Numbered from the stretch's first letter, positions 48,415 through 58,787 are shown. The stretch is DNA of 64,000 bases from Bacillota bacterium (GCA_044426085.1 JAWXUU010000001.1:15084-79083); one strand, 5' to 3'. Notes: a model not told the origin generated them from the letters alone. A program made the numbers and translations.

Positions 48415-51400
48415 TTATGGTTTACCCGCAGAGCCACTGCCACCTTGTGTCTTATTTATCCAGTCCTTCATCGTTTCGCCAAATCTTGAACTGCCTACAC
48501 TAGATGAAACATAGCCTCCTGCTCCTTTACCAAAGTTTGATACAATTCCTTTAAATCCACCCGACGTGCCACCTTGAACTGCACCCGAAATGCCTCCAAC
48601 AGTAAGTCCTGCTCCATGCTTTGCAGTTGTCGCAACTGTTCTCGCCGCATAAACTCCCGTGCCAATCGCAACACCAGCACCAACTTTAGCCATATTCATA
48701 AGTGCCATTTGACTGCCCACATTTTGTTGATGTTCCATGTTTCCTGTTCCTAAAAGTTGAGAGAACACAAGGTTCGCGCCATTCAGAGCGAACGCACCAC
48801 CAATCACAAAAAGCAGTTGAATAATTCCGTTTGCAACAGAGTTATTAGTATCAAATATCACCCCTGGATTGATTATGATTTTTGGCACAATCATGAAGTA
48901 TAAATTTACAGTGAGAACAATCGCATAGGCTGATATAACTTTAGATATCATCAAGTCACGCCACTGTTTAAACCTCGTGCCGTCATCTAACGGTTGTGTT
49001 GAAATCATGAGGGGTGAAAGGATATAAAGCAGCATCACATCAAATATTCTTTTCACAAACGTGAAAGAACAAAGTATCAAAGACACAAGCATAGCAATGC
49101 ACCCTGCAAAGGCGATGAATACATTTAATCTTGAAGTTGGGATATAATAAATTCCATCTGTATCCGTCCAATTTTCAATGTCCATATAAGCATAGTTTGG
49201 GAAAGTTTGTCCTTGAGAGTAAAGTATACTGTCACTACCAAAAATGGCACTTCTACTTATTTGACCATCGGGAAAAAACATATCCACCGTACTTTCATCT
49301 TTAAAATACAGATTTTGAGCTACTTCCGACCACCTAACACCATCAACTGTCATATCGAAGATTTTAGCCTTATCGTATTCATTTTCAGCAAGCAACATAA
49401 GCATTTGCCCGCCATACGATATCTCCATATTATCGTTAGCATCTTCAGTGCTATATACAAGTCCTTGTTCTAGTGCCATATTTATTTGCCCCATTATAAC
49501 GTTAGTGCAAAAAATCAACACAACGAGAAGAGTTGGAACTAATATAATATTTACAGCACTTGTTATGAATTTTTCAAATACACTGCTCGCATTCACTTTT
49601 TCATCAGACACCTGCATTGCTCTTATAAATCCTATGATTGTAAAGAGAAATAACAACGCAAAGCCTATGCACATCGTTCCAACTAAAACAGCTCTCGTTG
49701 CATCATCATCAAGGAAATAAATCAATAGATTTGATGACTCACCACCGATATTAACATTTTCAAGTCCTACTAATTTTTCAAATAGTCCAATGAGCAAATC
49801 AATTACCCCTGCGACATAAATTGTCACAGACAAGAATAATTCTTTGATTGCTTCGACATACCAAGCATCGGGGTCTTCCTCTTTCACGTTGTTATTAACA
49901 GCTGGAGCTTCAGGACCACAATCAGGGCAATCCATCATGCCATCACCTTCGCATAAATAACATTGAATAAATCCATCATTGCCACAAAGCGTGCATGGTG
50001 CTTGATAGTATAATGAATTATCATAACCAGAGCCATCACAAAATACACAAGCTATGCCATGACTATCTCCACAATCATTTTGACAAGGTATTTCCCCCGC
50101 ACCAAGACAAGTGTTACACACAATCAATACTGCTTCAGTTGCTTCAACTGTTATAGTTCCGCTCACATAAACATCTGCACAGTCAAAGCACGATAGTTTG
50201 ACTTCCACAAAATATTCTGAAGGACTGACCTTCTCTTCTTCGCCATTTTCATCAGTGATTGTTTTCATATCACCCTTGAATGAATATGTGTTTGACGTTG
50301 CGTTTTCTATTTCTTCACCATCAATATACCATTGATAAGTTATTGGATAGTTATATGCATTACCATCAGAATCAACTCCCGCTGCTATAACTTGCAATGT
50401 TTTTGAGGCATACTCTGTTATGGTTGCATCTGAGAAAGCTGAAGTGACTTCTATATACGTTTTTGCCGCAACTAAGAGCGTTACTTTTGAAGATGTTACA
50501 GTAAACCCTTCGTAGCTCGCTTGCACATATATCAAATATTCGCCTGAATCCAAATTTTCGCCTATTGAAAGCGTGCTTCCTGTTTCACCTGAAATAGCAA
50601 CTCCATTTCTATACCACTGATAAGTGATACCGCTTGAACTCGTTGTTCCATTGGAATACCCTACCTCTGCTGACACAGAGAACTTCGCATTTTCACCTTC
50701 TACTATTGACTGCGATTCTATATCTTTTGTGATAGAAATATCTGTCGCTGCCGCATTGACCGTGAGCGTTGCAACAGTGGAATTTATATCTGAAAATCCA
50801 TCTGTAGACACCTTTACATAATAGGTATATGTGCCTGAAGATAAATCACTACCTACAGTTATAGAACTGTCTGTTGCACCCGTTATTTGCACGTTATTTT
50901 TGTACCATTGGTAGCTTATATCACTTGTAGATATTGTTCCATCTGAATATTTCCTTTCAGCAGACACAGCAAACACAGTACTTTCACCTTGAATTATCGC
51001 CACGCTTTGAATATCTTGCGATATATAAAAATCTGTCACCGCAGGTAGCACAGTTAAAACCACGTTTGATGACTTCAAATCATCAAAACCATCCGCTGAA
51101 ATAATAACGTAGATAAGCACTGTACCCACTGCTTCATCTTCTCCAATTACTAGCACATTTTCAGTTTCGCCTTCAATCACTGAACCATTTTTATACCATT
51201 GATAACTAAGTTCTCCTACACTTGTTGTTCCATCGGAATAAATCGCCTCTGCTTCCACCTTAAACACTGTGTTTGAGCCTTCAATAATTGTGACATCTTG
51301 CAAATCTTCATTTATTCCTAAATTGATCGGTGCAGCTTCAACGGTTACTCCAATAGCTGATGATGTAACATCAGATAGACCCGTTGAAGACACCACTGCT

Positions 51401-52188
51401 TTAAAATAATACGTTCCAACACTCAACTGTGAAAGGTTGTATCCATTACTTGTTGCTCCTGAAATCGCTGTTGCCGTGGATGGGACAAAATCTTCATAAG
51501 TTGCCATATGCCATTGATAGCTAACTTCTGCTGTTTCTGCTGAATATTGAACTTCTGCAACTACTGAAACAGCTGTGTTATCGCCCTCTTTAATGACTTG
51601 ACTGCTAATGCTTTCTGATATTATGCAAATTTCAGGACTGCTTATCATTCCATCAACGCATGATTCACAATCTAAAGTTCCACTACCTGCATTATCTTCC
51701 ATGAATGCTATATAGTTTGAATTTGAATAATAAGCGTATGAGTTTGTAATTTTAAAGTATGTACTGCCACTTCCTCCACACGTTGAACAAGCCCAAAACC
51801 AATATTCATTGTAATAATAAGAAACCACACCACCTGTCACCCTCGTATAATCGGAATCCATAGTGTATCCATATCCTGAGCAATCAGGGCAATCCGTTGA
51901 ACCTGCACCCAAGCAATCAGAACACATTGTATCGAGATAACCAAGTAACATGATTTCATCATTATTTGAATTTGTATCTACAAGCCTATTAATAGTATCC
52001 AGTTCACCTGGGTGGCAATCATCTGTGCAAACTTCAATTATATTTCCCGACTCGCAGTATTGCATTGCAAATACTTTTTGCTGTTGCCACACAGTGGATA
52101 AACCACTAAAATAAGACAATACCAAAGCAACAACTAATAATATAGCTATTTTCGGCTTAAACTTTTTGACTCGCATATTATTTTTCAT
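48415..52188 (-). CDS. VirB6/TcpH-like polytopic T4SS membrane protein with a large ectodomain (Cys-rich clusters plus five Ig-like repeats) and a Gly-rich tail
   Basis: Signal or TM N-terminus. CxxCxGxG clusters at aa ~45-180 and ~667-757. Five ~95-aa repeats contain (S/T)YQWY(K/R)NG. At least 6 hydrophobic helices lie in the C-terminal half. The gene sits between the VirB2-like and VirB4 genes. Confidence 0.65.
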   Translation of the reverse strand: MKNNMRVKKFKPKIAILLVVALVLSYFSGLSTVWQQQKVFAMQYCESGNIIEVCTDDCHPGELDTINRLVDTNSNNDEIMLLGYLDTMCSDCLGAGSTDCPDCSGYGYTMDSDYTRVTGGVVSYYYNEYWFWACSTCGGSGSTYFKITNSYAYYSNSNYIAFMEDNAGSGTLDCESCVDGMISSPEICIISESISSQVIKEGDNTAVSVVAEVQYSAETAEVSYQWHMATYEDFVPSTATAISGATSNGYNLSQLSVGTYYFKAVVSSTGLSDVTSSAIGVTVEAAPINLGINEDLQDVTIIEGSNTVFKVEAEAIYSDGTTSVGELSYQWYKNGSVIEGETENVLVIGEDEAVGTVLIYVIISADGFDDLKSSNVVLTVLPAVTDFYISQDIQSVAIIQGESTVFAVSAERKYSDGTISTSDISYQWYKNNVQITGATDSSITVGSDLSSGTYTYYVKVSTDGFSDINSTVATLTVNAAATDISITKDIESQSIVEGENAKFSVSAEVGYSNGTTSSSGITYQWYRNGVAISGETGSTLSIGENLDSGEYLIYVQASYEGFTVTSSKVTLLVAAKTYIEVTSAFSDATITEYASKTLQVIAAGVDSDGNAYNYPITYQWYIDGEEIENATSNTYSFKGDMKTITDENGEEEKVSPSEYFVEVKLSCFDCADVYVSGTITVEATEAVLIVCNTCLGAGEIPCQNDCGDSHGIACVFCDGSGYDNSLYYQAPCTLCGNDGFIQCYLCEGDGMMDCPDCGPEAPAVNNNVKEEDPDAWYVEAIKELFLSVTIYVAGVIDLLIGLFEKLVGLENVNIGGESSNLLIYFLDDDATRAVLVGTMCIGFALLFLFTIIGFIRAMQVSDEKVNASSVFEKFITSAVNIILVPTLLVVLIFCTNVIMGQINMALEQGLVYSTEDANDNMEISYGGQMLMLLAENEYDKAKIFDMTVDGVRWSEVAQNLYFKDESTVDMFFPDGQISRSAIFGSDSILYSQGQTFPNYAYMDIENWTDTDGIYYIPTSRLNVFIAFAGCIAMLVSLILCSFTFVKRIFDVMLLYILSPLMISTQPLDDGTRFKQWRDLMISKVISAYAIVLTVNLYFMIVPKIIINPGVIFDTNNSVANGIIQLLFVIGGAFALNGANLVFSQLLGTGNMEHQQNVGSQMALMNMAKVGAGVAIGTGVYAARTVATTAKHGAGLTVGGISGAVQGGTSGGFKGIVSNFGKGAGGYVSSSVGSSRFGETMKDWINKTQGGSGSAGKP
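50134..51621 (-). repeat. Five tandem Ig-like coding repeats inside the VirB6-like gene
   Basis: Recurrent pattern ..I.EG.N..F.V.AE..YSDGT.S....SYQWYKNG..I.G.T...L.IG......G.Y..YV... Confidence 0.7.
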
Positions 52189-52267
52189 CTACAACGCTCC
52201 TTATTTTTTTGAATGGGATGGGGTTTATACGAACTCCCCTCAAAACGTTTGTTACTGCCTGTATGTA

Positions 52268-58379: not shown

Positions 58380-58418
58380 TTAAGCCTCCTTTGGCTAGAA
58401 ATTTTTAAAAATCTTCAC

Positions 58419-58787
58419 CTATTCAAACCTATCTGCAACATCACAATCATGACATCTGAATGGTCCATAAAGCACTACGTATCCAGTGTTGCTACACGTT
58501 TCACACATCGCACCTTCCTCGCAATAGCCAAACGCACATTCGCAATCGAAACATATAACTTGTTTTTCATCACAAATGCCATCGTCACCACAAGCCTCAC
58601 ACAAAACCCGATTCGACTCAACACTTAGGTCATTTACATAAATGTCTGTTTGATTTACATAAATGTCTTCACAACATTCATCGTGACAAATATCTGCCTC
58701 AGTATTGCTTGTTGCCATTGGTATAAAAATTGCAGCTGCAATAACGAGTATCGTTATTCCAATAATTATTAGTTTTGTTTTATTCAT
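58419..58787 (-). CDS. Small membrane-anchored Cys-rich protein (122 aa)
   Basis: N-terminal TM helix. CEACGDDG and CETCSNTG motifs. LYGPFRCHDCD matches VMGPFLCEDCD in the giant protein. Confidence 0.6.
   Translation of the reverse strand: MNKTKLIIIGITILVIAAAIFIPMATSNTEADICHDECCEDIYVNQTDIYVNDLSVESNRVLCEACGDDGICDEKQVICFDCECAFGYCEEGAMCETCSNTGYVVLYGPFRCHDCDVADRFE

Follow-up and report, generated by a model that had tools for sequence, protein, structure and literature searches.

The closest described systems to the locus reported here are the integrative and conjugative elements (ICEs) of Mollicutes and the plasmids of Spiroplasma (Mbov_0395/0396/0397, MMCAP2_0566, and ICEA of Mycoplasma agalactiae), in which genes for a surface protein, a pilin-like protein, a polytopic transmembrane (TM) protein, and VirB4 follow each other in that order. 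The initiation of mating by mycoplasma ICEs such as ICEA depends on a surface lipoprotein (PMC6030558), which provides a precedent for a dedicated surface component. The same backbone and gene order were found in a stretch of 64,000 nucleotides (nt) from a Bacillota bacterium (GCA_044426085.1, JAWXUU010000001.1:15084-79083), here called the window, in which positions are counted from the first letter. The sequence originated from fish-gut metagenomes and an anoxic gut community. Three proteins of the type IV secretion system (T4SS) encoded here, which we refer to as the channel protein (1257 amino acids, aa), the giant protein (1905 aa), and the small protein (122 aa), contained arrays of cysteine knuckles in segments predicted to be located outside the cell, whereas the Mollicutes counterparts have no cysteine arrays and their channel protein lacks an ectodomain with immunoglobulin-like (Ig-like) repeats. 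The locus also differs from the Mollicutes elements in its MobL relaxase and in its host, which uses the standard genetic code; MurB and MurA-like proteins are encoded in the window.

Among the surface adhesins and VirB6 analogues of Gram-positive T4SSs (PrgB/PrgH of pCF10, TcpH of pCW3), a wall-associated adhesin and a polytopic channel protein with an extracellular extension have roles analogous to those considered here. No sequence relationship to PrgB/PrgH or TcpH was detected in the Pfam and NCBIfam profile scans, and we know of no cysteine-knuckle arrays in these proteins, nor did the literature search reveal any. In general, little is understood of the outer parts of conjugation systems of the Gram-positive and Mollicutes types, above all of the way in which the channel gets to a recipient and keeps hold of it. 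The knuckles themselves resemble those of the cysteine-rich (CR) clan of DnaJ/Hsp40 (PF00684; the BSD2 cysteine-rich domain, 6ekb; anti-TRAP, 3lcz), with CxxCxGxG-type motifs at a spacing of about 10 to 11 residues. Members of this clan use the domain for protein-protein contacts and oligomerization.

Cysteine Knuckle Arrays in Three Proteins of the Locus

The genes for the three proteins are located on the minus strand in a co-oriented set that encodes the small protein (58419-58787), the giant protein (52662-58379), a protein of 116 aa (52268-52618), and the channel protein (48415-52188). The features of the three proteins are listed below; L and P numbers are our handles for other loci and for database proteins.

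58707 to 58787, minus strand: small protein, anchor or signal at the N-terminus (aa 1-27), in which K3 and K5 precede a TM segment (aa 6-24)
58419 to 58706, minus strand: small protein, acidic cysteine-rich ectodomain (aa 28-122, stop codon included), 14 cysteines, 4 CxxC
58275 to 58379, minus strand: giant protein, signal peptide (aa 1-35) with basic n-region KFKNRKRIVR, hydrophobic core, and VQA-ST boundary (translation, hydropathy)
57504 to 58274, minus strand: giant protein, N-terminal cysteine-knuckle array (aa 36-292), isoelectric point (pI) about 4 (cysteine map; Pfam, 22.8 bits)
52800 to 57503, minus strand: giant protein, body (aa 293-1860) of repeated Ig-like "DxAGN" domains (translation)
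52662 to 52799, minus strand: giant protein, C-terminal anchor (aa 1861-1905), 80% identical in L001, motif kept in L003, L076, and L077
52066 to 52188, minus strand: channel protein, signal peptide (aa 1-41), VFA-MQ boundary, AAGGAG 8 nt upstream, equivalent peptide in P0003
51625 to 52065, minus strand: channel protein, distal cysteine module (aa 42-188), 12 cysteines, 4 CxxC, 3 strict CxxCxGxG (cysteine map)
50212 to 51624, minus strand: channel protein, five cysteine-free Ig-like repeats (aa 189-659), about 97 aa long and all with a SYQWY motif (Pfam Ig_2/Ig_3)
49879 to 50211, minus strand: channel protein, membrane-proximal cysteine module (aa 660-770), 14 cysteines, 7 knuckles, 3 strict CxxCxGxG (cysteine map)
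48415 to 49878, minus strand: channel protein, polytopic membrane domain (aa 771-1150) and glycine-rich C-terminal tail (NCBIfam profiles, hydropathy)

A total of 37 open reading frames (ORFs) in the window were scanned for motifs. These contained 33 CxxC motifs, 28 of which were found in the channel (10), giant (14), and small (4) proteins, within four cysteine-rich segments with a combined length of 553 aa. The other 34 ORFs (14,542 aa, 1.66% cysteine) contained 5 altogether. Every motif that a first-pass annotation of the sequence had quoted was recovered in the gene to which it had been assigned, by translation and motif scan. In the giant protein, for which it had claimed 12 or more motifs at aa 42-285, 14 CxxC and one CxxxxC were found at aa 48-278. 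When the giant segment was shuffled 5000 times, the mean number of CxxC motifs was 4.7 and the maximum 12, as compared to 14 observed, while 0.6 CxxCxG motifs were expected and 6 observed. A chance origin of the motifs was therefore rejected, since composition-preserving shuffles yield far fewer than are present.

The strict motif CxxCxGxG accounted for 10 of the 28 CxxC motifs in the three proteins (6 in the channel, 4 in the giant, and none in the small protein), and most knuckles were degenerate, of the form CxxCxxG or CxxC only. CxxCxGxG is thus an idealized form of a more degenerate knuckle. The earlier description of dense DnaJ-type CxxCxGxG repeats is accurate as regards the density, which is far above chance, but claims too close a match to the motif; CEACGDDG and CETCSNTG are both present in the small protein and neither fits the strict pattern. 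All of the cysteine modules were very acidic, with a pI of about 4.

The array of the giant protein contained 34 cysteines, with 4 motifs of the strict type and 6 that fit CxxCxG. Because the protein appears to be anchored by its C-terminus, the array is predicted to form the cell-distal tip. The C-terminal tail consisted of KLNTAGK ([LM]NTAGK in orthologues), about 18 weakly hydrophobic residues and RRRRIRFK, and was kept in four orthologues, in L001 (9380-9520), L003, L076, and L077; the homologues in L076 and L077 were cut at their N-termini by contig ends, and the comparison was made for the C-termini. This is not a canonical LPXTG signal, and the window ORFs that were scanned included no sortase gene. 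The tail could act as a sorting signal of a non-canonical, LPXTG-like kind or simply as a tail anchor. For the body of the giant protein, only weak Pfam matches were obtained (BiPBP_C, DUF7300, CBM_48). It was also noted that the body contains a tandem duplication of about 385 aa (aa ~575-1345, window ~54350-56650), both copies of which include the segment (E/K)(F/A)P(K/S)YN...YF(E/G)ING(I/M)YYA(L/S)YENAE.

In the channel protein, the 10 CxxC motifs were distributed over two clusters (aa 45-188 and aa 667-757), and the six that had been quoted previously were all strict. Between the clusters are the Ig-like repeats, which matched Pfam Ig_2 with 30.4 bits as well as Ig_3, and which returned hundreds of Ig-domain matches from the databases. 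The polytopic domain begins at about aa 784 by hydropathy, and aa 791-1154 scored above the cut-offs of two NCBIfam profiles, MMCAP2_0566_fam (NF045848, 128.8 bits, cut-off 90) and Mbov_0396 TM (NF045889, 93.1 bits, cut-off 70). No match to VirB6/TrbL (Pfam PF04610) was obtained for the channel protein at E <= 1. The previous label "VirB6-like" is thus fitting for the position next to VirB4 and the polytopic topology, but not as a family assignment; since there is no Pfam VirB6/TrbL match, the likeness is an analogy, and the domain is of the MMCAP2_0566/Mbov_0396 type. It was further observed that the membrane-proximal module has an odd number of knuckles (7), all of which are invariant in three homologues.

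The gene for the small protein starts within the last 8 nt of the coupling-protein gene, both in the window (58780-58787) and in L001 (3404-3411), and this overlap in both loci suggests that the two genes are translationally coupled.

Paralogy and Conservation of the Modules

The segment from aa 57 to 121 of the small protein aligned with aa 144-225 of the giant protein at an E-value of 1e-8, and aa 4-144 of the giant protein were collinear with aa 1-142 of the channel protein at an E-value of 3e-5. Based on these alignments, we consider the modules of the three proteins to be paralogous, beyond a mere sharing of motifs. The suggestion of a module common to the three proteins is hence borne out as homology at the sequence level, while its proposed use for interaction or as a stalk is plausible and would be a further step; the segment GPF(L/R)C(E/H)DCD, which had been pointed out in the small and giant proteins, falls within the 82-residue alignment between them.

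A syntenic locus was identified in two other assemblies, L001 and L002, with genes for MobL, a coupling protein, a small protein of 112 aa, a giant protein of 1918 aa, a protein of 117 aa, a channel protein of 1312 aa, and VirB4, in this order. Arrays were present on all three counterpart proteins. In the comparison with L001, 32 of the 34 cysteines in the N-terminal module of the giant protein were kept, at an identity of 35% for the other residues, as were 10 of the 14 cysteines in the small protein. The giant proteins of the window and L001 were 59% identical over their whole length; the identity climbed from 52% to 69% along the body toward the C-terminus and reached 80% in the anchor, so that the tip was the most divergent part. 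In the membrane-proximal module of the channel protein, 14 of 14 cysteines were invariant among the window protein, P0002, and P0003, with 41% identity at the other positions. The channel orthologue P0003 was 56% identical overall and 70% identical in the membrane domain and tail, and its distal module was about twice as long with about twice as many motifs, showing that the copy number varies between orthologues. An apparent loss of the N-terminal channel module in L003 was found to be a scaffold gap. As judged from these alignments, the pattern of conservation fits a scaffold held by cysteines with a fast-evolving surface, fastest at the cell-distal end.

Predicted Topology

The channel, giant, and small proteins all start with a basic N-region followed by a hydrophobic segment. 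For the channel protein, the true start is probably the ATG at position 52188, which is preceded by AAGGAG at 8 nt, while the public gene call (P0001, 1216 aa) starts at M42 (~52065) and drops the signal peptide. Because the upstream ATG has such a strong ribosome-binding site, the database start of P0001 is probably wrong. All of the cysteine modules are predicted to be extracytoplasmic, given the signal or anchor sequences in the three proteins, the AAGGAG ribosome-binding site, the signal peptide of P0003, and the Ig repeats between the two clusters of the channel protein. The placement outside the cell proposed in the first-pass annotation agrees with each of these observations.

We considered the alternative that the segments are ordinary cytoplasmic zinc ribbons, by way of a downstream start or an inverted topology, as might be suggested by the start of P0001 at M42 without a signal peptide. 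The strong AAGGAG before the upstream ATG, the signal peptide of P0003, the five Ig repeats that separate the channel modules, and the unambiguous N-terminal export or anchor sequences of the giant and small proteins speak against it. A cytoplasmic location is thereby effectively excluded, and we give it next to no weight.

Relation to the DnaJ Cysteine-Rich Domain

The Pfam profile PF00684 (DnaJ_CXXCXGXG) has a gathering threshold of 32.7 bits. The N-terminal module of the giant protein scored 22.8 bits (E-value 1.1e-4) and that of the channel protein 14.4 bits, both of which are below the threshold, and no match was obtained for the membrane-proximal channel module or for the small protein. 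The L001 giant protein scored 16.7 bits and P0003 23.1 bits. Other weak profile matches of the N-terminal channel module included anti-TRAP, BSD2_CRD, and GRXCR1-2_C, and no matches to the DnaJ and DnaJ_C domains were found in the three proteins at E <= 1. A search with a module profile against the sequences in PDB gave five matches with E-values of 0.07 to 0.8, none of them significant, to BSD2, an "embryo defective 2737" chain, DnaJ, anti-TRAP, and DNAJA3, mostly of the DnaJ-CR type. No other group of families was recovered by the profile and PDB searches. Furthermore, P0137 matched the giant module and, with 60.8 bits on PF00684, is clearly a member of that family, which provides a transitive, bridging link from the module to this profile.

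The CR domain of DnaJ has four CxxCxGxG repeats, two tetrahedral Zn(Cys)4 centers, and a V-shaped zinc-finger fold, and is flanked by a J domain with its G-F region and by C-terminal substrate-binding domains. The modules contain 4 to 15, mostly degenerate, knuckles (the small protein has exactly four CxxC, all degenerate), are not accompanied by a J domain, and score below the threshold; they are also exported, as predicted, and very acidic, whereas the members of the DnaJ-CR clan are cytoplasmic or plastidial. Because of the scores, the lack of a J domain, and the apparently different number of knuckles, we classify the modules as divergent members of the DnaJ-CR-like knuckle superfamily and not of the DnaJ family. 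The DnaJ-type label therefore stands in the sense of CR-likeness and fails for DnaJ sensu stricto (22.8 and 14.4 as compared to 32.7 bits).

Distribution of Similar Arrays

The closest relatives of the channel membrane domain were P0122 (50% identity) and P0123 (41% identity), both of which are encoded in syntenic loci and have short ectodomains with neither arrays nor Ig repeats. On the Spiroplasma ixodetis plasmid pSHM_1, the secreted counterpart was free of cysteine, and the channel counterpart had no ectodomain. Since such an ectodomain is missing from P0122, P0123, and the pSHM_1 counterpart, the arrays appear to be a lineage-specific gain.

The giant module was searched exhaustively with HMMER against 1.84 billion representative proteins, which resulted in only 27 matches at E <= 1e-3. 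The best non-self match was P0126 (E-value 5e-13), a lipoprotein from a sibling assembly with a long collinear GENxxCxTCGGNGERM...AGTG segment; no T4SS genes were found around it, on a contig that was short and uninformative. The other matches were generic CxxCxGxG arrays, some of them cytoplasmic, while exported ones included the lipoprotein P0128 as well as P0137, a protein that combines a signal peptide with a TM segment at its C-terminus. A further protein, P0144 (2009 aa), has a signal peptide, a long CxxCxGG array, a large body, and a type I dockerin, in a cellulosome-type context. P0126, P0128, P0137, and P0144 resemble the window proteins in having a knuckle array after a signal peptide or lipobox, and the layout of P0144, with the array at the mature N-terminus of a very large body, is that of the giant protein. 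None of the four is characterized or located in a recognizable T4SS context, unlike the arrays in the window. Because similar exported arrays recur on these unrelated surface proteins, the cysteine module is not specific to T4SSs.

Several other searches were less informative. The tblastn matches of the giant N-terminal module to Halobacterium and Variovorax plasmids were spurious, merely cysteine-rich sequences. A query with the whole channel protein was swamped by Ig-domain proteins, its only true relatives being P0001 to P0003, and a word-indexed search with the giant N-terminus retrieved only P0121, a cytoplasmic array protein. A scan of a genome collection with the channel alignment was dominated by the SYQWY Ig pattern, with comparable arrays in 0 of 72 loci.

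No published description combining CXXCXGXG with conjugation was found in a full-text literature search, and the literature that pairs CXXCXGXG with "signal peptide" concerns eukaryotic or phage proteins. The statement that such arrays are not known from characterized Gram-positive T4SSs is consistent with this search, but uniqueness to T4SSs does not follow, in view of P0126, P0128, P0137, and P0144. The DnaJ-CR-like knuckle and the Mollicutes-type T4SS are already known. What appears to be undescribed is their combination, the extracellular placement on three components of the machine, and the Ig-stalked channel protein.

The Conjugation Backbone

Neighboring genes were identified with Pfam and NCBIfam profiles. 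The array genes are surrounded by genes for ArdC and a metallopeptidase, a MobL relaxase, a coupling protein of the CD1115 family, a VirB4 ATPase, a primase-polymerase-like protein, and SSB. The backbone proteins are as follows:

45681 to 48443, minus strand: VirB4-type ATPase (NCBIfam VirB4_plasma/Mbov_0397, E-value 4e-157, 524.5 bits; Pfam P-loop_TraG)
52268 to 52618, minus strand: pilin-like protein of 116 aa with two TM segments and no cysteine array (NCBIfam Mbov_0395)
58780 to 60882, minus strand: type IV coupling protein (Pfam T4SS-DNA_transf, 2.2e-42; NCBIfam conju_CD1115, 270 bits, cut-off 250)
60836 to 62149, minus strand: MobL-family relaxase (Pfam MobL, 1.1e-23)

VirB4_plasma (Mbov_0397) was the best match of the ATPase, with a score below the equivalog cut-off of 590, and its nearest relatives in the plasmid collection were from Spiroplasma plasmids, at 27% to 30% identity. 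The match of the 116-aa protein to the Mbov_0395 pilin-like profile (31.5 bits, cut-off 40, E-value 1e-7) was also below the cut-off; its homologue in L076 had a weak match to PF18895 (T4SS_pilin). The linkage of the array genes to a T4SS, as first noticed from the sequence, is evident from the neighboring genes for ArdC, the MobL relaxase, the coupling protein, the pilin-like protein, and VirB4.

All genes, including the 1905-aa ORF, were open under translation table 11, with TGA not read as tryptophan, and genes for MurB and a MurA-like protein were present. For these reasons we take the host to be a standard-code bacterium, probably with a cell wall. On the basis of the profile matches and gene order, the locus is best interpreted as encoding the mating pore of a conjugative element of the Mollicutes type (MPF-FATA) in an uncultured standard-code fish-gut bacterium. 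The Mollicutes elements, in contrast, reside in wall-less hosts with genetic code 4 and integrate by means of a DDE transposase; such a transposase was absent from the ORFs that were scanned here, and the limits of the element were not mapped. No near-identical DNA was present in the plasmid collection.

Possible Function and Alternative Explanations

The reading that we consider most plausible, with a probability of about 0.5, is that paralogous acidic CxxC-knuckle arrays were acquired by three Sec-exported parts of the T4SS, where they bind metal and serve as caps, spacers, or docking surfaces. It builds on the observed motifs and their paralogy, on the export signals and the conserved cysteines, and on the synteny and the lack of arrays in the nearest relatives, and from these we infer metal binding, rigidity, and docking. 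According to this scheme, three exported components would have gained very acidic arrays of the DnaJ-CR type. After export, pairs of knuckles would each bind one metal ion, most likely Zn2+, through four cysteines, and the metal-bound modules would form compact, rigid, protease-resistant units. The modules are located at the tip of the giant adhesin, on the small membrane-anchored protein, and in the channel protein on either side of its stalk of five Ig repeats. They could there act as structural caps or spacers and as like-with-like docking surfaces by which the giant and small proteins are held to the stalk of the channel, and the fast-evolving distal copies may additionally touch the recipient. 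The more specific proposal that metal-dependent like-with-like docking joins the giant tip and the small protein to the channel Ig stalk in a wall-spanning, self-assembling outer structure seems to us quite unlikely.

A number of observations weigh against the proposal of metal-binding caps, spacers, or docking surfaces. None of the three proteins reached the gathering score of PF00684 and the small protein had no match at all. AlphaFold2 models of the giant module were unreliable, with a pLDDT of 36.1 for a single sequence and 49.6 for a 33-row alignment, which consisted of array fragments with the L001 orthologues left out. Foldseek found nothing significant in PDB (best E-value 1.5), the top matches being mostly zinc-ribbon proteins. 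The export of the modules is a prediction from sequence features and their conservation, and exported cysteines could form disulfides instead of metal sites. The 7 knuckles in the membrane-proximal module are a misfit to a simple scheme with two knuckles per metal ion; speculatively, one knuckle could take part in a metal site in trans, shared between the subunits of a dimer or with another protein. The orthologues numbered 2 to 3, too few for co-variation, and docking among the three proteins is purely an inference. Finally, the exported arrays on P0126, P0128, P0137, and P0144, which are unrelated to T4SSs, argue for a generic structural module and not for a role peculiar to conjugation.

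Among the alternatives, the cysteines may form intramolecular disulfide knots, such that the modules would be oxidized, knottin-like stabilizers of surface proteins. This would agree with the passage of the modules through Sec in an unfolded state, with the extra cysteines outside of CxxC motifs in every module, and with the odd number of knuckles next to the membrane in the channel protein. We regard it as doubtful, since the source was an anoxic gut community, the scanned ORFs included no gene for a thiol oxidase, and the CxxC(xGxG) motifs at a spacing of 10 to 11 residues, together with all of the profile and PDB matches, point to zinc-binding domains of the DnaJ-CR clan. Somewhat unlikely, too, is that the arrays mainly recognize the recipient, as an adhesive tip for a surface ligand and not for docking or spacing within the machine. 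The location of the module at the cell-distal end of the C-terminally anchored giant protein, of which it is the most divergent part, and the variable copy number in the distal channel module would be expected for such a tip, and mating in mycoplasma ICEs is started by a surface protein (PMC6030558). A role in recognition does not explain the copy that adjoins the membrane in the channel protein, where the cysteines are invariant, nor the copy on the anchored protein of 122 aa, which is too short to reach far. The two roles are not mutually exclusive, and recognition of the recipient could coexist with docking or spacing.

It was also considered whether the modules are redox-active or chaperone-like, and act as extracellular thiol-disulfide oxidoreductases or holdases. 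Plant DnaJ-like zinc-finger proteins have disulfide-isomerase activity, and thiol-disulfide oxidoreductase or holdase activity has been reported for DnaJ CR domains, to which the modules are weakly homologous. A review of oxidative protein folding in plant cells deals with CXXCXGXG proteins (PMC3800646). The 7 to 15 knuckles per protein, inside structural proteins, look architectural and not catalytic, and no partner thioredoxin or Dsb gene was found nearby, which makes this explanation highly improbable.

Other Genes in the Window

Downstream of the T4SS genes (29840-39452) are genes for a type III restriction-like helicase-endonuclease, an N6/N4 DNA methylase, and an SNF2 helicase, and further downstream an HD/TGS (RelA/SpoT-like) gene (26996-28462); these are likely cargo or defense genes of the element. 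A block of higher GC content (18030-24182, 0.40-0.42) contains genes for a GLUG-motif protein of 1042 aa (18030-21158), an M6/InhA-like peptidase (21171-22538), and a thiol-activated-cytolysin-like protein (22617-24182; PF01289, 1.7e-17). The region at 1239-17010 contains a second coupling-protein gene (11625-13337) along with genes for an FtsK/SpoIIIE-like protein, an FtsK-gamma/FtsZ_C fusion, a BspA-type leucine-rich repeat protein, an AAA ATPase, an Hsp70/MreB-like protein, MurB, and a MurA-like/NUDIX fusion, and may belong either to another mobile element or to an unusual part of the chromosome.

Implications

The immediate impact of these findings is limited, because the bacteria of the fish gut that carry the element are uncultured and few copies of it exist in public data. 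If the interpretation is true, this would be the first channel protein of a T4SS in which a long Ig stalk is capped by zinc-knuckle arrays also present on its adhesin, and the DnaJ cysteine-rich fold would be extended to an extracellular structural use in bacteria. The locus would likewise show how a minimal mycoplasma-type system has been elaborated in an apparently walled host. Should the docking proposal also be true, the modules would constitute a new class of module for T4SS assembly outside the cell, derived from a domain that has been known only from the interior of cells and plastids.

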